The notes under the pieces are model-generated. The model made no database searches. It was given only the letters and a program-made list of their open reading frames with translations, and was not told the DNA's origin. A stretch of 64,000 bases of DNA from an uncultured Holophaga sp. (GTDB lineage: Bacteria; Acidobacteriota; Holophagae; Holophagales; Holophagaceae): positions 1,248,001 to 1,312,000 of the forward strand of contig OY761614.1 of the NCBI GenBank assembly GCA_963664825.1, read 5' to 3'. Position numbers and translations under genes: made by a program. Shown here piece by piece: positions 28,437 through 43,538 of this stretch; within the stretch, counting starts at the first letter, position 1; each line of letters begins with the position of its first letter.

Positions 28437-28640
28437 ATCCATGGATCCAGGGTAGAGCGTAGTCACGAGAGAATCTTTCCCTTTTAGGGTCTGGCCGGGG
28501 GATAGGGCACCGATCATGTCTCCAGGTGGCGAAAGGGGTTTGAAAGTCAAAGCTCTGGGGAGACAATGAAAGTCTGCTTTTGAAACAGCCCGGCCCGAGT
28601 CGGACATCTATTGTGCCATCCACTCTTTAGGGGGATCTGC

Positions 28641-30770
28641 ATGCAGCCATTCGTTTCCAGCGACCAGAACTTGAAAGAGTTCTCCTTCCGGGCGGTGCTC
28701 ATCGGACTGGTGCTCTGCATCGTCCTGGGGGCCGCCAACGCCTACCTGGGCCTTAAGGCCGGCATGACCATCGCCGCTACCTACCCGGCGGCGGTCATCG
28801 GCATGGCCCTCATCAAGCTCCTCAAGGGCACCATCCTCGAGGAGAACATGGCCCGCACCGTGGGCAGCATCGGTGAGAGCGTGGCGGCAGGCGCCGTCTT
28901 CACCCTCCCCGCCTTCGTCATGAGCGGCATCTGGCCCCGGTTCTTCACGGCCGGGAACTACATGACCTCGGCCTGCATCATGTTCAGCGGCGGTCTCCTG
29001 GGCATCATGTTCGTGGCCCTCCTGCGCCGCGTCATGGTGGAAGATGCGGAACTGCCCTACCCCGAAAGCGTGGCCGCAGCGGAAATCCACAAGGCTGGCC
29101 AGGGCACGGGAGGCGGCACGGGCCTGCTATTTGGCGCCATGGCCTTCGGCGGTTTCATCCAGATTCTCAATCAGCTGAGCCTCTTCAGCACCTCCTGGAA
29201 GAAGTTCGTCTTCTTCAAGGACGCCGCCTTCAACCTGCTGGATAAGGGCAAGGCAGCCGTCGCCAAGGGCGGCATCCTGCTCACGTCCCCGGGCATCAGC
29301 CCGGCCTACATGGGCGTGGGCTACATCATCGGCCCCCAACTCGGCGCTTTGAACTTCGCAGGCGGCGTCCTCGCCTGGGGCCTGCTGGTGCCCATGATCA
29401 CCTACTTCCTGGCCCCGGGCTCCATGCCCGCGGACGCCTCGATGACCGACTGGCTCACCCTAGCCACCAGTGTTTGGCAGAATATTGTCAAGCCCATCGC
29501 CATCGGCGGCATGCTGGTGGGAGCCTGCACCACCCTTTTCAAGATGAGAAATAGCCTCATCACGGGCCTCAAGCGCTCCATCGGGGACGTGAAGAAGGCC
29601 GCCACCGGTGAGCACACGGTCGATCGCGTTAACCAAGACATCCCCTTCAACTGGCTCCTGGTGGGCGTGGCCGTGGCCGCACTCTGCACCTTCCTCATCG
29701 CGGCCTTCATCTTCAAGACGAACCTGCTGGTGGCCTTCGTGGCCGCGCTGTTGGCTGTGATCCTGGGATTCTTCTTCGCGGCCGTCTCCGGATACCTGGT
29801 GGGCATCATCGGGTCTTCCAATAACCCCATGTCCGGTCTGACCCTGACGGCCCTGGTCATTACCGCCCTCGTGATGGTGATGCTGGGCGTCAAGGGCAAT
29901 AGCGGCGTCGCCGCCGTGCTGGGCGTGGCCGCCATCGTCTGCGTCAGCAGCGGCGTGGCAGGTGAAATGCTCCAGGATCTCAAGGCCGGCCATATCCTGG
30001 GCGGCACGCCCTGGCGCATGCAGGTGGGCGATATCTTCGGCGTAGTCCTCGCCGCCAGCCTGCTCTTCCTTCCCCTGGCTTATCTCCACATGGGGGATAT
30101 CAATATCGCCGCAGCCAAGGAACTCGATAGCCGCCAGGCGGCCAAGGTGCAGATCGTCACCTACTCGGGCACCCGCAAGGATCTCCAGAAGGAATACACC
30201 CTGGAACAGGTGAAGGCCCTCGATCCCGAGACCAAGAAGGAAGTCCTGAACCTGCAGGATGCGGGCTTCGGCAGTTCGCGCTTGGCGGCGCCCCAGGCGG
30301 GCCTCATGGCCATGCTCGGCCGCGGCATCGTGGAGGGTCGCATGCCTTGGGCCCTCATCATCGCCGGCATGCTCATGGGCATTGGCTTCGTGCTCATGCA
30401 GGTGAAGAGCCCCATGCTCGTCTCCGTGGGCATGTATCTGCCCCTGGAGACCACCTTCGCCATCTTCCTGGGTGGCTGCATCAAGGGCATCGTCGAGATC
30501 ATCGGCAAGAAGAAGAAACTCACCGATGGCCAGAAGGTGCGAGTCGAGAATAGCGGCGTACTGGTGGCCGCAGGCCTCATCGCCGGTGAAGCCCTGGTGG
30601 GCTTGATCTTCGCGGGGCTCGCCGCCAAGAACATCAACTACGCCATCATCAAGAACCCGGGCATGTTCTTCATCAGCCTGATCATCCTGGCGATCATCGC
30701 CCTGATCCTCATCTTCGTGCCCCTGCGAGACCCCGGTCCCGCCGACGCTCCCGCGCCGCCCAAGGCCTAA
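28641..30770 (+). CDS. OPT family oligopeptide transporter
   Basis: NAYLGLKAG, LPYPES, GSSNNPMSG, QDLKAGH, AAPQA. Confidence 0.92.
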   Translation: MQPFVSSDQNLKEFSFRAVLIGLVLCIVLGAANAYLGLKAGMTIAATYPAAVIGMALIKLLKGTILEENMARTVGSIGESVAAGAVFTLPAFVMSGIWPRFFTAGNYMTSACIMFSGGLLGIMFVALLRRVMVEDAELPYPESVAAAEIHKAGQGTGGGTGLLFGAMAFGGFIQILNQLSLFSTSWKKFVFFKDAAFNLLDKGKAAVAKGGILLTSPGISPAYMGVGYIIGPQLGALNFAGGVLAWGLLVPMITYFLAPGSMPADASMTDWLTLATSVWQNIVKPIAIGGMLVGACTTLFKMRNSLITGLKRSIGDVKKAATGEHTVDRVNQDIPFNWLLVGVAVAALCTFLIAAFIFKTNLLVAFVAALLAVILGFFFAAVSGYLVGIIGSSNNPMSGLTLTALVITALVMVMLGVKGNSGVAAVLGVAAIVCVSSGVAGEMLQDLKAGHILGGTPWRMQVGDIFGVVLAASLLFLPLAYLHMGDINIAAAKELDSRQAAKVQIVTYSGTRKDLQKEYTLEQVKALDPETKKEVLNLQDAGFGSSRLAAPQAGLMAMLGRGIVEGRMPWALIIAGMLMGIGFVLMQVKSPMLVSVGMYLPLETTFAIFLGGCIKGIVEIIGKKKKLTDGQKVRVENSGVLVAAGLIAGEALVGLIFAGLAAKNINYAIIKNPGMFFISLIILAIIALILIFVPLRDPGPADAPAPPKA

Positions 30771-30783
30771 TGCTCCAATAACG

Positions 30784-30811
30784 GAAAAGGGCCCCGCATG
30801 GGGCCCTTTTC
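30784..30811 (+). terminator. Rho-independent terminator
   Basis: GAAAAGGGCCCC-GCAT-GGGGCCCTTTTC. Confidence 0.8.
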
Positions 30812-30837
30812 GTTAAGCCTGAAAAGACGAGAAGAGA

Positions 30838-31182
30838 ATGAACACACCCAAGACACTGAACGAGATGCTGGCCGCAGTGCCCGAACCCGCGGTGGAATGC
30901 CTCGCCCGCGAGGGCGGTCTCCTCACGCTGATGCGGCCCAAGTTCGTGAGCCCCCGGTTTCAATGGCTCCAGCGCCTACTCAAACGGCCCCACTTCAAGG
31001 TGAAGTTGGATGCCGTGGGGAGCTGCCTCTGGGCCCACATGGACGGCACCCGGGACGGCTATGCCCTGGTGGAGATCCTCCACCTCGCCTTCGGCGAACG
31101 GGTGGCGCCCGCCGATGAACGCACGGCCCGCTTCCTGCTCCAGCTCACCGAGGGCGGCTTCGTGCGTTTGAAGCGCCCCTGA
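30838..31182 (+). CDS. PqqD family (RRE-like) protein
   Basis: KLDAVGSCLWAHMDG..ILHLAFGE..FLLQLTEGGFV. Confidence 0.75.
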   Translation: MNTPKTLNEMLAAVPEPAVECLAREGGLLTLMRPKFVSPRFQWLQRLLKRPHFKVKLDAVGSCLWAHMDGTRDGYALVEILHLAFGERVAPADERTARFLLQLTEGGFVRLKRP

Positions 31183-37050: not shown

Positions 37051-38958
37051 CTACAGCCCCTTCAGAACGGCCCTGGCGAAATCCGGCAGGGAGGGATCCC
37101 GGGCGCCCATGATGAGCACCAGGTCCCCTTCTTGAGCTTCCGAAACGAGGCGCTCCACCAGCCACTCCCGGGAGGGTGCGAATTCAGCCAGGGTGCCCTT
37201 TTCACCTATTTCGCACACGATCTCGGCAGACGAGAAATCCCGGTTCGCCGTCCCCCCCGCGTAGTAGATCTCCAGCATCCAGAGCCGGTCCTGGGGCCGC
37301 AATTCGGCCTGGAAGGTCGCCACGAAATCCGGACGCAGGAAGCGCATGGGGGCGTATCCATGGGGCTGGAAGACGGCCAGCACACGCTTGGCGCGCATCT
37401 GGGCGGTGCGGATTGAAGCGGCCACCTTGGCCGGATTGTGGCCGAAATCGTCCACCACCTGTACGCCCCCCTTCGTGCCCAGGACCTGAAACCGCCGCGC
37501 CACGCCTTGGAAGGCCGCCAGAGGAGCCACCATCTCCTGCAAGGGCACTCCCACCGCGGCGCAGGCGGCGAGCGCCGCCAGGGCGTTCTCCACATTGTGT
37601 CTGCCGGGCACGGGGAGACTGAAGGTGATGCCATTCACCCGGAAGGTCGAGCCCTCAGCCTCCAGGACCAGTTCCTCACCCCGCAGCCCCGCTTCCTTGC
37701 CGAATCCGAAGACCGTGGCCCCCGAGGCCAGCTCCGTCAGGTTCTCGGCCTCGCCCACCACGAAGGCCTCCTGGACGCGGCCCCGGAAGATGCGGAACAT
37801 CTCGGCCACCTCGGATTCGGCCTTGTGGTCCTTCTGGAGGTTCAAGACCACGCCCACGGCAGGTTTGTAGCGCACCACCGAACCATCGCTCTCATCGGCC
37901 TCGATGACCAGCAGATCGGAATCCCCCGCCCAGGCGTTGCCCCAGAGACCTTCCCCCTGAAGGGCCACCAGTTCGCCGCCGGTGATGATCGAAGGGCTGC
38001 GCCCTGCCCCCCGCAGGATTTCAAAGACAAGAGCCGCCGTCGTGGATTTGCCGCTGGTGCCCGTGATGGCCAAGGTGCGATGGGAGGCCACGAGATCGGC
38101 CAGCAGTTCGGAGCGGTGGATGAGCGGCACGCCCAGGCGCCGCGCTTCAGAGAAATCGGGCACTGTATCTTCCACCGCCGTGGAATAGACCACGCCGCTG
38201 CAATCCCCGGCCACGCCGCAGCCATCCTGGGGCAGGATAGAGATGCCCAATTGTGCCAGCCTCCCCCGGGCCGCCGCGTTCTGGCCTCGGTCGAAGGCGC
38301 GATCACTGCCGCTCACGGGCCTCCCCTTCATGGCCCAGAATTGCGCCAGGGCGCTCATGCCGCTGCCGCCCACTCCCGCGAAGTGGAGGCGGCCCGAACC
38401 TGACCCCTCGACCACCACCAGCGCATCACCTTCCCTGGCCAGCCCGAAGAGTTCCACCACATCGGCATTGGCCATGCGCAGGCAGCCGTGGGAGACGGCC
38501 TCCCCCAATCGGTGTTCCTGGTTGGTGCCGTGGATGTAGATGTAGCGCTCCAGCGTGTCGTGATCGGCACCCCGGTTGAGGCCTTCCTCCAGGCCCTCCA
38601 GCGTGAGGACCCGCGTGAGGATCAGGTCCTCCTCCCGGGTTTCGCCCTGCCAGATTTCCCCCGTAGCGATCTGGCTGCGGAAGATCATGCCGCCGGGAGC
38701 GCCCTCTCCAAGCTTGCGATGGATCCTGTGCCAGCCCAGAGGCGTCTGGTACGAGCCCTCCTGATAGCCGAGGCCATTCAGGGCCGTGGAGATGGGGTAG
38801 TCCCCGAGCAGCTCCCCGTGTTCCAGCAGGCCCATGCGCTGCCGCGCCACATCCACCACCAACAGGCGGTTCGGCAGGGCCCGGAAGGGACTTCCGGGTC
38901 TGGAGAGGGCGGCAAGCCCCAGAGATCGGTAGTGGGCGGCGAGAACGGGATTGGCCAT
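37051..38958 (-). CDS. YkuD (L,D-transpeptidase-like) domain fused to a MurC/Mpl-like Mur ligase
   Basis: N-terminal YIYIHGT..SHGCLRM; C-terminal GVGGSGMSALA, GTSGKSTT, EADESD, DDFGHNP; one continuous ORF. Confidence 0.88.
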   Translation of the reverse strand: MANPVLAAHYRSLGLAALSRPGSPFRALPNRLLVVDVARQRMGLLEHGELLGDYPISTALNGLGYQEGSYQTPLGWHRIHRKLGEGAPGGMIFRSQIATGEIWQGETREEDLILTRVLTLEGLEEGLNRGADHDTLERYIYIHGTNQEHRLGEAVSHGCLRMANADVVELFGLAREGDALVVVEGSGSGRLHFAGVGGSGMSALAQFWAMKGRPVSGSDRAFDRGQNAAARGRLAQLGISILPQDGCGVAGDCSGVVYSTAVEDTVPDFSEARRLGVPLIHRSELLADLVASHRTLAITGTSGKSTTAALVFEILRGAGRSPSIITGGELVALQGEGLWGNAWAGDSDLLVIEADESDGSVVRYKPAVGVVLNLQKDHKAESEVAEMFRIFRGRVQEAFVVGEAENLTELASGATVFGFGKEAGLRGEELVLEAEGSTFRVNGITFSLPVPGRHNVENALAALAACAAVGVPLQEMVAPLAAFQGVARRFQVLGTKGGVQVVDDFGHNPAKVAASIRTAQMRAKRVLAVFQPHGYAPMRFLRPDFVATFQAELRPQDRLWMLEIYYAGGTANRDFSSAEIVCEIGEKGTLAEFAPSREWLVERLVSEAQEGDLVLIMGARDPSLPDFARAVLKGL

Positions 38959-39005
38959 GGGTAAGGGTACCGCGGGGAACCCCACCCGGGGACTGCCAGT
39001 GCGCG

Positions 39006-39572
39006 TCAGCCCATGGAAGCGGTGGGTTGCAATTCCAGATGGGATTGTCCGGTCTCCAGCCCGGGCGCAGCCCCAGGGATGTGAGCCTGGATGAAGGAGA
39101 CAACCTCCGCTGGTTTTATGCCGAGAACAATGGCGAATTCGTCGTACAACAGCTTTTCCGCGGTGGTCATGATCTTGGTATCGGTAGCGTTGAGCCTCTT
39201 ACCCGTCCCCTTTTTGCGGTCCTTCTCGAGGTACAGGGTCTTTATCAACTTCACCAATTCATGGCAATCGCCACTGTGAAGTTTCACGGAATACTCCCGA
39301 TCCCGCTCGCGATCATCACTGATCCAGATGGATTCTTCCTCAGGCATCCCTTGGATCAAACTATTTATTTCGTCCCTGGTCAGGATCGGCCGGATCTTGG
39401 CCACGAGTTCCTCATCGGTTGTGGAGACATAGGTGATCGAATTGGAATCAAAAAAAGGTTTAAGAACATAATATTCTTGTTCCTCGGCGGAACGAAATTT
39501 TTCGGTTCTTATATCCACGATCTTGCATACACCTATCGTATTATACACGACACTGTCATTGATATTAAACAT
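39006..39572 (-). CDS. CarD family transcriptional regulator
   Basis: FNINDSVVY..GVCKI..YYVLKP..IRP..LYDEFAIVLG. Confidence 0.85.
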   Translation of the reverse strand: MFNINDSVVYNTIGVCKIVDIRTEKFRSAEEQEYYVLKPFFDSNSITYVSTTDEELVAKIRPILTRDEINSLIQGMPEEESIWISDDRERDREYSVKLHSGDCHELVKLIKTLYLEKDRKKGTGKRLNATDTKIMTTAEKLLYDEFAIVLGIKPAEVVSFIQAHIPGAAPGLETGQSHLELQPTASMG

Positions 39573-39941
39573 TTTTATCACCAGTGCCTGCCTAAAAGCC
39601 ATGTACTTATGGCAGCAAGCAATCCTCTGTAATCAGTATAGCAAAAATGACTCTTCGCTGTAAGGTTCCAGGACAAACCCTGTGGAACCGATTCCCACTT
39701 GGATGTGGAAGTTGTCCCAACCCTGGCTTCGGAATGACCCTGGAGGGAATGGGGTGGGCATGGGAACTCCTGGGCACGACGAGGGCTTGAACGCCTCACG
39801 GAACAGCGAGTAGGGGTTGCGGGAAGCGATGTGTTTGCATGAAACTATCGGTTAACTCCTGCCAAGCAGCCTTGGGAAAGACTCGCGGCAGCTTAAAAGG
39901 CGCATCTCCTTGACGAACCTATATTCCCAGCGAGGACACCC

Positions 39942-41573: not shown

Positions 41574-41696
41574 GCCACCTTTCGACCTGGGGGACGGCCT
41601 TCCCCTCTGACCTCCATCACGCTTTTTCCCACCTCGGGGCGCGCCTCCTTCACAATGAAGACTGGTGCGCCCCAAAGGGCGAAACAGGAGCCGGTG

Positions 41697-43538
41697 ATGT
41701 CCCACTGCGTGGTCGAGTGTGTCCCCAATTTCAGCGAAGGCCGCGATATGGCCAAGATGCGGCTCATCACGGGAGCCATTGAGACAGTGGCTGGCGTGAA
41801 GCTGCTGGACGTGGATCCCGGGGCCGACACCAACCGCACGGTGGTGACCTTCGTGGGGGACCCGGATTCGGTCGTGGAGGCCGCCTTCCGGGGCATCCAG
41901 AAGGCGCTCGAAGTCATCGATATGCGCGGCCATAGCGGCGCGCATCCCCGCATGGGCGCCTGCGACGTGTGCCCCTTCATCCCGGTGGAAGGCGTCTCCA
42001 TGGAAGACTGCGCGGGGCTCGCCCGGCGTCTGGGCGAGCGCGTGGGCCGGGAGTTGCAGCTGCCCGTCTACCTCTACGAACATGCCGCCAGCCGCCCGGA
42101 GCGCCAGAACCTGGCCGTGGTGCGCAAGGGCGAGTACGAGGGCCTGGAGGCCAAGCTCCAGGACCCGGACTGGGCGCCGGATTTCGGCCCGGCCACCTTC
42201 GTCCCCGAATTCGGCGCCCTCATCACAGGCGCCCGGGAATTCCTCATCGCCTACAACATCACCCTGAATAGCCGCGACAAGGCCCATGCCACCGATATCG
42301 CCTTCGATCTGCGGGAGAAGGGCCGGGTGGCCCGCCGGGGCCAGACCAGCGCCTTCTACAGCAGCGGCCGAGAACTGCGCTACGCGGAAGGCTGCTTCCC
42401 CTGCGGCAATTGCGAACTGGACTTCCCCACCTATGAGGCTCTGGAAGCCCATTGCCACACCGTCCACGGCTACGATCTGCGCCGCCTCCTCAAGCTCAAC
42501 GATATCGATGCGACGAGGCCCATCCTCGGCAAGAAGGCCTACAAGGCTGGACTCTTCACCGAATGCAAGGCCATCGGCTGGTACGTGGATACCTACAAGC
42601 GGGCCCAGCTCTCCATCAATCTCACCAACTACAAGGTGACGAGCCCCGTGGATGTGCTGGAGACTACGCGCCGCATGGCAGTGGCCCGGGGCCTGGTGGT
42701 GACCGGCAGCGAGATCGTGGGCCTAGTGCCCTTCAAGCCCCTCTTCGATGCGGGTCAGTTCTACCTGCGCCAGCAGGGCAAGTCCCCCTTCGTCCCCGTG
42801 GCCGATGTGCTGGAGAACGCCGTCTTCAGTATGGGGCTGGCCGATGTGGCTCCCTTTGAGATCGAGAAGAAGGTGCTGGGCCTGCCCAAGGTTTTTGAAA
42901 CCGGCCTCATGGCCATGAAGGTAACGGATTTCGTGACGGAGGTGAGTCGCGATACCCCCGCCCCCGGGGGCGGCAGCATCGCGGCCCTGGCCGGAGCCCT
43001 GGGCGCGAGCCTCGCCTCCATGGTGGCCAATCTCACCAAGGCCAAGAACGCCGAACATGGCGCCAGCCTCCTGGCCGCCGCCGACCAGGCCCACCGAGTG
43101 AAGGACGCGCTCGTCCTCGCGGTCGATGAGGACACCAACGCCTTCAACGCCTACATGGACGCCCGGAGACTGCCCCAGGGCAGCCCGGAGGAAAAGGCTC
43201 TGCGCGAGGCGGCCATGCTGGAGGGCCTGAAGATCGCCGTCAATGTGCCCTTCCAGACCGCCGCCCTCTGCCTGGAGGCCATGCAGGCCGCCGGCGCCGT
43301 CATTGAACAGGGCAACCCCGCCTCCATCACCGACGGCATGGTGGGCGTGCAGATGGGCTTCGCCGGTGTGCGGGGCGGCATCTGGAACGTGCTCATCAAC
43401 CTCAAGGATATCGACGACGCCGCCTACAATGCCGACATGAAGGCCCGCTGCGAGAAACTCCTGATGGAGGCCATCGGCCTCATGGATCGCGCCATCAGCG
43501 AAGGCGATGCCCGCCTGGGAGCCATGCTGGCGAAGTAG
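41697..43538 (+). CDS. ftcD: Glutamate formimidoyltransferase / cyclodeaminase (bifunctional)
   Basis: ECVPNFSEGR, HPRMGACD, TPAPGGGS cyclodeaminase domain. Confidence 0.92.
   Translation: MSHCVVECVPNFSEGRDMAKMRLITGAIETVAGVKLLDVDPGADTNRTVVTFVGDPDSVVEAAFRGIQKALEVIDMRGHSGAHPRMGACDVCPFIPVEGVSMEDCAGLARRLGERVGRELQLPVYLYEHAASRPERQNLAVVRKGEYEGLEAKLQDPDWAPDFGPATFVPEFGALITGAREFLIAYNITLNSRDKAHATDIAFDLREKGRVARRGQTSAFYSSGRELRYAEGCFPCGNCELDFPTYEALEAHCHTVHGYDLRRLLKLNDIDATRPILGKKAYKAGLFTECKAIGWYVDTYKRAQLSINLTNYKVTSPVDVLETTRRMAVARGLVVTGSEIVGLVPFKPLFDAGQFYLRQQGKSPFVPVADVLENAVFSMGLADVAPFEIEKKVLGLPKVFETGLMAMKVTDFVTEVSRDTPAPGGGSIAALAGALGASLASMVANLTKAKNAEHGASLLAAADQAHRVKDALVLAVDEDTNAFNAYMDARRLPQGSPEEKALREAAMLEGLKIAVNVPFQTAALCLEAMQAAGAVIEQGNPASITDGMVGVQMGFAGVRGGIWNVLINLKDIDDAAYNADMKARCEKLLMEAIGLMDRAISEGDARLGAMLAK

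Follow-up and report, generated by a model that had tools for sequence, protein, structure and literature searches.

A predicted single-chain enzyme for trimming and re-ligating cell wall peptides in Holophagaceae joins an ElsL-like domain to a third lineage of the MurC/Mpl superfamily

Among the closest described systems are LdcA (S66) with Mpl in Escherichia coli and LdcV with Mpl in Vibrio cholerae, both of which trim recycled tetrapeptide and ligate the tripeptide to UDP-MurNAc (MurNAc, N-acetylmuramic acid). The tetrapeptide is trimmed by LdcA, LdcV or ElsL; if left untrimmed, UDP-MurNAc-tetrapeptide accumulates and is toxic, an effect that is suppressed when mpl or ampG is lost (PMC8649774; 10.1101/771642). 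Ligation of tetrapeptide is toxic when the carboxypeptidase is missing (10.1101/771642; PMC13046382). Mpl works at 260 per min with tripeptide, 5.9 with tetrapeptide and 0.7 with L-Ala, and prefers tripeptide ≈44-fold over tetrapeptide and ≈190-fold over dipeptide (PMC3060825). ElsL is cytoplasmic, turns M4 into M3 in vitro and has a catalytic and essential residue, Cys138 (PMC8649774). We analyzed a stretch of 64,000 nucleotides (nt) from the genome of an uncultured Holophaga sp. (hereafter the window), in which a minus-strand gene, P0001, encodes an ElsL-like YkuD domain and a complete Mur ligase in one polypeptide. Judging from sequence comparisons, we consider this protein likely to be a cytoplasmic two-step peptide-recycling enzyme that trims and ligates, its ligase being a non-orthologous equivalent of Mpl. 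The predicted chemistry would be that of LdcA and Mpl, whereas the fusion is a single polypeptide, its peptidase fold is unrelated, its ligase is not orthologous, and AmpD was not found in the genome.

The open reading frame (ORF) runs from an ATG at 38958 to a stop codon at 37051–37053, encodes 635 amino acids (aa) and is free of internal stops. An alternative in-frame GTG is found at 38985, but the starts of the homologues cluster near the ATG instead. Analysis with Pfam showed a YkuD domain (69 bits, cut-off 23.4) followed by three Mur ligase domains at residues 191–293, 298–466 and 488–620, each above its cut-off. The full Mur ligase fused within one protein, as described in the initial annotation, was thus recovered. 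An AlphaFold2 model based on a 148-row alignment has a mean predicted local distance difference test score of 96 and a predicted template modelling score of 0.93, and suggests that the two modules are packed in a fixed arrangement. The GSGSG stretch noted earlier as a linker between them is present, but just 1 of 121 fusions has it; junctions differ in length from protein to protein, and many are GLGRL-like. It is therefore not a feature of the family, and its reading as a meaningful linker was rejected.

A fusion confined to this assembly would have undermined the initial annotation. Instead, all 120 homologues listed share the same four-Pfam architecture, with the source names Holophaga and Geothrix, and the carriers include the named isolates Holophaga foetida and Geothrix spp. 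End-to-end matches were found in 68 of the 96 other genomes of the family, single-contig genomes among them; several further genomes match across the junction or break at contig ends, and ≈15 give MurC-level matches or nothing. The remaining two families in the class, with 13 and 11 genomes, showed no fusion. A divergent fusion occurs in Chitinispirillaceae (46% identity in the ligase), YkuD–ligase fusions of the lineage are P0122, P0133, and P0141, and a single-protein scan of genome contigs gave eight loci. The halves are adjoining separate genes at L005 (Candidatus Eisenbacteria) and L007, are also separate at L037 and L039, and seem to be split in genome G090, all of which could point to read-through or misassembly of two neighboring genes. 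Such an artefact is nevertheless refuted by the 68 end-to-end matches and the named isolates, and given the architecture common to the 120 homologues we regard its probability as negligible.

Two variants of the locus were observed within this set. In G090 (L128; G090:C40:252-2122) the coding region is divided between two ORFs that overlap, one for the YkuD part and one for the ligase; the former stops short of a complete motif, through either a frameshift or a sequencing error. In G108 (L127:2864-4321) the ligase lacks the YkuD domain and resembles an internal deletion: it keeps a GLGRL junction and a stretch similar to the N-terminal helix (residues 4–18) of the fusion. It lies directly behind murD, and the contig also carries an S66 gene at a distance of ≈45 kb.

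The YkuD domain matches the NCBIfam model for ElsL (LdtK of Acinetobacter baumannii; NF040925) with 137–139 bits and E = 1e-40 over model positions 8–158 of 164. No other NCBIfam family was found at 1e-8, and the second-best YkuD model was LdtE with 21 bits. A histidine acting as the base is established YkuD chemistry, and HGT-x10-SHGC, with H143 and C159, is kept in all 121 fusion proteins examined. A crude screen found a hydrophobic N-terminal stretch in none of the 121 (10-residue Kyte-Doolittle maximum < 2.0). A single 19-residue window at 1.68 was taken as the interior of a soluble fold on the basis of the AlphaFold model, and by hydrophobicity the N-terminal helix is no signal peptide. 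The intact motif reported initially is thus seen in all 121 fusions, and so, as far as this crude screen can tell, is the missing signal peptide. Pfam, NCBIfam and hydropathy showed none of the export signals or peptidoglycan-binding or IgD-like accessory domains of periplasmic L,D-transpeptidases (LdtA-E type).

Like ElsL, the domain combines a YkuD fold and a Cys/His motif with the lack of a signal peptide, transmembrane helix and peptidoglycan-binding domain (crude hydropathy and Pfam), and it covers nearly the full model. Unlike the ElsL proteins of the published survey, which were filtered as stand-alone proteins of 105–200 aa, it carries an attached ligase and an extra N-terminal helix, and its 139 bits stay below the cut-off of 270. 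The ElsL survey excluded proteins longer than 200 aa, so fusions of this kind could not appear in it; Data Set S3 of the same paper may list stand-alone relatives (PMC8649774). Taken together, the profile match and the conserved motif suggest that the YkuD domain is probably an LD-carboxypeptidase.

The ligase is closest to MurC in both sequence (≈32% to the MurC of the source genome) and fold. It scored 298 bits with the MurC model TIGR01082 (cut-off 335.1) and 101 bits with the Mpl model TIGR01081 (cut-off 388.7), thus reaching neither cut-off. Foldseek placed MurC structures at the top (e.g., Haemophilus influenzae MurC, template modelling score 0.86–0.87 by target, root-mean-square deviation 2.3–2.7 Å; MurC structures include PDB 1P3D and 2F00) and Mpl (PDB 3HN7) at rank 22 (0.66 and 6.0, respectively), a comparison confounded by domain opening. 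As only Mur ligases were among the matches listed, the fold search is uninformative on the YkuD domain. Among 1.84 billion cluster representatives, the best 150 matches (all ≥286 bits) were mostly stand-alone proteins of 440–480 aa, while solved MurC proteins gave at most ≈195 bits against the whole fusion protein.

With IQ-TREE (LG+G4; 42 rows, selected from 86 together with further Mpl and outgroup rows, 8 outgroups) these ligases formed one branch (13 rows, support 100/99) and Mpl another (9 rows, 100/100), with an open fork toward MurC. A joint clade with Mpl was not rejected by the approximately unbiased (AU) test (p-AU 0.325), and FastTree with one outgroup grouped the lineage with MurC. 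On these results no origin is claimed, and descent from MurC rather than Mpl was dropped as a candidate. On profiles and trees the ligase is an orthologue of neither MurC nor Mpl and represents a third, well-supported lineage, so that the original label of a MurC/Mpl-like ligase is correct for the superfamily and not for either orthologue.

Alignment of 54 rows from the lineage with 26 from MurC and 5 from Mpl showed that the lineage has retained the residues for the nucleotide (UDP), ATP and the metal (Mg) intact. The superfamily motifs GxGGxGM, P-loop, E-x-D-E, DH, RR, and DD and the three-domain fold are all present. In H. influenzae MurC the incoming amino acid is bound by H376, R377, R380, Y346, and H348 (PMC3060825). 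Of this set the lineage keeps both His residues (His507 and His533), while Gly534 and Pro537 occupy the positions of the two L-Ala-binding arginines (Arg383/Arg386 in E. coli, Arg377/Arg380 in H. influenzae) and the Tyr is mostly Phe (81%; Phe505 here, as in Mpl). The Gly and the Pro are each found in 94% of the lineage rows; MurC has Arg in 88% and 100% of its rows. In a second phylum, that of genome G124, which we presume to be Verrucomicrobiota, the pattern could be located in 25 of 30 loci; 23 of these have the same Gly/Pro pair, and the remaining two are probably mis-anchored.

Numbered as in MurC, the lineage thus differs by R383→G, R386→P and Y352→F, and also by E358→K, G466→R, a Ser for the P-loop His and the lack of the DxY insert after H199. 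The gene furthermore lies outside the dcw cluster. Asn508 and Lys511 are lineage-specific and present in 100% of the rows. Basic residues have been gained at K511 and R620 (both invariant) and at R597 (93% of rows), and R220, Q244-D-G, E263, K511, and R620 make up a distinct invariant set. Arg620 and Asp621 are candidate peptide-binding residues. With Mpl the lineage shares the superfamily, the lack of the L-Ala-binding arginines and the Phe for the MurC Tyr in DDF.

The lineage is repeatedly found together with LD-carboxypeptidases. P0266 (742 aa, on a single 5.8-kb contig) is a lineage ligase fused C-terminally to an LD-carboxypeptidase of the S66 type, whose fold has no relation to that of YkuD, and in L006 (Holophagaceae; N runs in the ligase) a ligase lacking YkuD is directly followed by S66. 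Out of 593 confirmed stretches from a metagenome scan, the best 80 were evaluated; by profile scores, 53 of these 80 belong to the lineage and 27 to canonical MurC. A carboxypeptidase partner was found at 29 of the 53 lineage loci and at none of the 27 MurC loci, counts that are confounded by kinship, since ≈19 of the S66 cases come from one alphaproteobacterial-like subclade (relatives named Rhizomicrobium, Magnetospirillum and Alphaproteobacteria). The 29 consist of 5 YkuD fusions (seen with our own hidden Markov model only), 2 adjacent YkuD genes and 22 adjacent S66 genes, the 24 adjacent ones being confirmed by Pfam. When at least 900 nt were available on both sides, the numbers were 19 of 32 versus 0 of 16. 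As a positive control, true Mpl loci had an S66 neighbor in 6 of 14 cases; like the lineage, Mpl is often beside an LD-carboxypeptidase gene, in its case ldcA. By our count there are roughly four distinct arrangements: a YkuD gene upstream of the ligase or fused to it, a divergent S66 gene, an S66 gene that is downstream or fused, and that of L006. This repeated pairing with enzymes that make tripeptide argues for tripeptide as the substrate of the ligase. The trim-and-religate idea of the initial annotation thereby gains support from two unrelated peptidase folds, in addition to the ElsL match and the lost arginines.

Across 251 genomes of its own phylum the lineage was found in 20 and an Mpl-type gene in 156 (including the unpublished genome G146), and for the phylum of G124 (151 genomes) the numbers were 40 and 49, respectively, with no overlap in either. 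As both patterns follow families or classes, this exclusivity (0 of 60 shared) is confounded by lineage and is consistent with, not proof of, replacement. Both Mpl and the lineage are present in addition to MurC. For the phylum of G124, a separate MurC-type locus was found in 37 of the 40 carriers, five of which were checked for the canonical motifs. In the source genome, which is a single contig and 96.55% complete, a canonical murC with the motifs HHPTE and QPHRYSR is located at C1:380186. This bears on the idea that the ligase is a spare or specialized MurC for L-Ala, Gly or Ser, merely co-located with another cell wall gene. MurC being the top profile and fold match, the two conserved His residues, the G108 ligase behind murD and the three carriers in which no separate MurC was found would all fit such a role. 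The loss of both carboxylate-binding arginines in 94% of the rows, the separate MurC in nearly all carriers and the 27 canonical MurC loci without a carboxypeptidase neighbor nevertheless make it quite improbable.

Among 45 carriers, an ElsL-like protein was found in 9, S66 in 20, both in none and neither in 16, LdcV-type enzymes lying outside this search (hypergeometric 0.002 for the non-overlap, overstated by kinship). The same Cys/His chemistry serves hydrolysis and transfer, so the YkuD domain might also be an LD-transpeptidase-like exchanger of the terminal D-amino acid before ligation, or a non-catalytic substrate trap. Both the missed ElsL cut-off and the S66 gene in 19 of the 96 family genomes would be in line with this. 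The YkuD domain, however, occupies in fusions and gene pairs the position that S66, a serine carboxypeptidase, holds elsewhere, never co-occurs with it in the 45 carriers and matches ElsL to the exclusion of other NCBIfam families, and we therefore find a role other than hydrolysis very improbable.

In the recycling reaction that we favor, the ElsL-like domain would use Cys159 and His143 to cut the terminal D-Ala off recycled tetrapeptide, as its family suggests, whether this is free, sugar-linked or already UDP-linked. The ligase would then join the tripeptide to UDP-MurNAc, and the UDP-MurNAc-tripeptide would enter the pathway at MurF, skipping MurC, MurD, and MurE. Loss of the two arginines that hold the carboxylate of free L-Ala would admit a peptide, whose carboxylates, lying farther out, could be bound by the new basic residues K511, R620, and R597. 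Peptide specificity would in this way be reached via residues other than those of Mpl, and the fusion would prevent the build-up of toxic, dead-end UDP-MurNAc-tetrapeptide.

Several observations weigh against this proposal, in addition to the kinship effects in the exclusivity and neighbor counts. The YkuD score is about half of the ElsL cut-off, and none of the Mpl signatures GI(C/G)GTFM, Tyr182/DEYD Tyr, SAFFDK loop, EPRSNT, and SNG was found in the aligned ligase. No partner was seen at 24 of the 53 lineage metagenome loci, 0 of 30 loci in the phylum of G124 have a carboxypeptidase within 1.5 kb, and 15 of the 40 carriers there have neither an ElsL-like protein nor S66; a separate MurC was not found in the three carriers G356, G360, and G440. 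The S66 genes of the family occur mostly alongside the fusion. Searches of the source genome recovered ampG (above cut-off), anmK and a GH3 NagZ-like gene, together with a MurQ match below cut-off and one family-5 peptide-binding protein only. No AmpD-type amidase (Amidase_2) was found there, and the family as a whole has Amidase_2 in just 21 of 96 genomes. Both Amidase_3 proteins have N-termini that by eye resemble signal peptides, and a cytoplasmic Amidase_3 was therefore rejected as a substitute for AmpD. With AmpD not found and the Amidase_3 copies apparently exported, the proposal lacks an evident route for free peptide into the cytoplasm; peptides released by periplasmic amidases could enter via a peptide transporter.

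These points could also mean that the enzyme works in the same pathway on another substrate: the L-Ala-D-Glu dipeptide, tetrapeptide that is trimmed later on UDP-MurNAc, or sugar-linked peptide in the absence of AmpD. The 75 of 96 family genomes in which AmpD was not found, the lack of the Mpl signature, the distinct invariant residues and the 15 carriers with neither carboxypeptidase would agree with this. Set against them are the repeated pairing with tripeptide-producing enzymes and the strong preference of Mpl itself for tripeptide over tetrapeptide and dipeptide (PMC3060825), and on balance we see another substrate as unlikely.

Besides the canonical murC, our searches of the source genome found neither an mpl nor an S66 ldcA nor a further YkuD protein. 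This answers the call of the initial annotation to look for separate murC, mpl and ldcA genes. The absence of Mpl and LdcA homologues has been taken to mean that a species degrades its wall peptides, and the same has been suggested for many species (PMC13046382; PMC11980594). If the lineage is an equivalent of Mpl, this conclusion fails wherever the lineage occurs. It would then be a second recycling route for wall peptides in bacteria with no known recycling ligase, thousands of “MurC” annotations would need correcting, and the substitutions would show how an amino-acid ligase scaffold becomes a peptide ligase by a route other than that of Mpl.

We lean slightly toward a broader view, in which the third lineage is an independently evolved murein-peptide ligase, mis-annotated as MurC, across many phyla (groups named are Holophagaceae, Eisenbacteria, Fibrobacterota, Alphaproteobacteria and others). 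The fusion would be its single-chain, possibly channelling form, AmpD-independent in Holophagaceae, and many supposed Mpl-less peptide degraders would reuse wall peptides whole. Working without AmpD would imply that the stem peptide is released or taken up in some further way. Being a single soluble protein, the fusion makes both steps, their order and channelling assayable. Both the fusion and the ligase lineage are apparently undescribed, no description having been found in the literature searched, a search whose coverage left out most subscription journals. The features of the gene are listed in Table 1.

Table 1. Features of the fusion gene and its product, in window coordinates
Feature	Coordinates	Strand	Basis or remark
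Whole gene P0001, 635 aa: ElsL-like YkuD + third-lineage MurC/Mpl-superfamily ligase	37051..38958	-	ORF, Pfam, homologues, AlphaFold2
N-terminal amphipathic helix, residues 4–18, consensus like AARYRALAL	38905..38949	-	hydropathy, AlphaFold2
YkuD-fold domain, ElsL-like, residues 31–182, predicted cysteine LD-carboxypeptidase	38413..38868	-	PF03734, NF040925
His143 of HGT, predicted catalytic base	38530..38532	-	121/121 fusions
Cys159 of SHGC, predicted nucleophile	38482..38484	-	121/121 fusions
GSGSG junction, residues 185–189, unconserved	38392..38406	-	1/121 fusions
Mur ligase module, residues 190–635, lineage apart from MurC and Mpl	37054..38391	-	NCBIfam, tree 100/99, fold
P-loop GTSGKST, residues 300–306	38041..38061	-	MurC/Mpl have G-T/S-H-G-K-T-T
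DDFGHNPAK, residues 503–511	37426..37452	-	alignment
FQPHGYAP, residues 530–537	37348..37371	-	alignment
MGARD, residues 617–621; Arg620 and Asp621 invariant, lineage-specific	37096..37110	-	alignment

A conserved operon was considered and rejected. Neither the CarD-like gene upstream nor the MscS gene downstream is conserved, the other loci examined have different neighbors, and MscS lies 3′ of the gene in two genomes of the same genus only; the two neighbors were therefore not counted as parts of the system. The CarD-like gene (39006–39602, minus strand) ends 47 nt before the start of the fusion, is visibly AT-richer than its surroundings and was not seen beside the fusion in the relatives examined. 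Scanning for promoters and terminators gave nothing attributable to the fusion gene: two promoter-like sites fall inside the CarD-like ORF or upstream of it, and a single terminator-like site is on the opposite strand. A plasmid collection searched for the gene at 1e-60 gave no match. Elsewhere in the window, an OPT-family oligopeptide transporter and then a PqqD-like ORF are found at 28611–31182 (plus strand), ≈6 kb from the fusion. A formiminotransferase-cyclodeaminase fusion at 41655–43538 (plus strand) carries a Cys/His-rich, zinc-finger-like CxxC...C...HCxxxH inside its formiminotransferase domain.

The canonical murC of the source genome stands alone, far from the murE/murD region (C1:2867044-2873588). 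A gene resembling D-Ala-D-Ala ligase (ddl, named by eye) is directly followed by ampG on the same strand (C1:2469613-2472454), a pairing that, from gene order, would link muropeptide import to the reuse of D-Ala. About a fifth of the family genomes (among them G025 C1:926381-951194, G043 C1:92724-114924, G077 and G080) have an S66 gene together with two genes for Amidase_2, all lying within ≈25 kb in at least four genomes, apparently a patchy cell wall scavenging island. In eight of the 30 loci in the phylum of G124 (L165, L171-L173, L175, L177, L178, and L181) the lineage ligase has two genes just upstream that by eye are bactofilin-like, and in five there is a MATE-like gene. Finally, an ORF behind a true mpl (L008:6319-7209) carries what we take to be M14/MpaA-like motifs.

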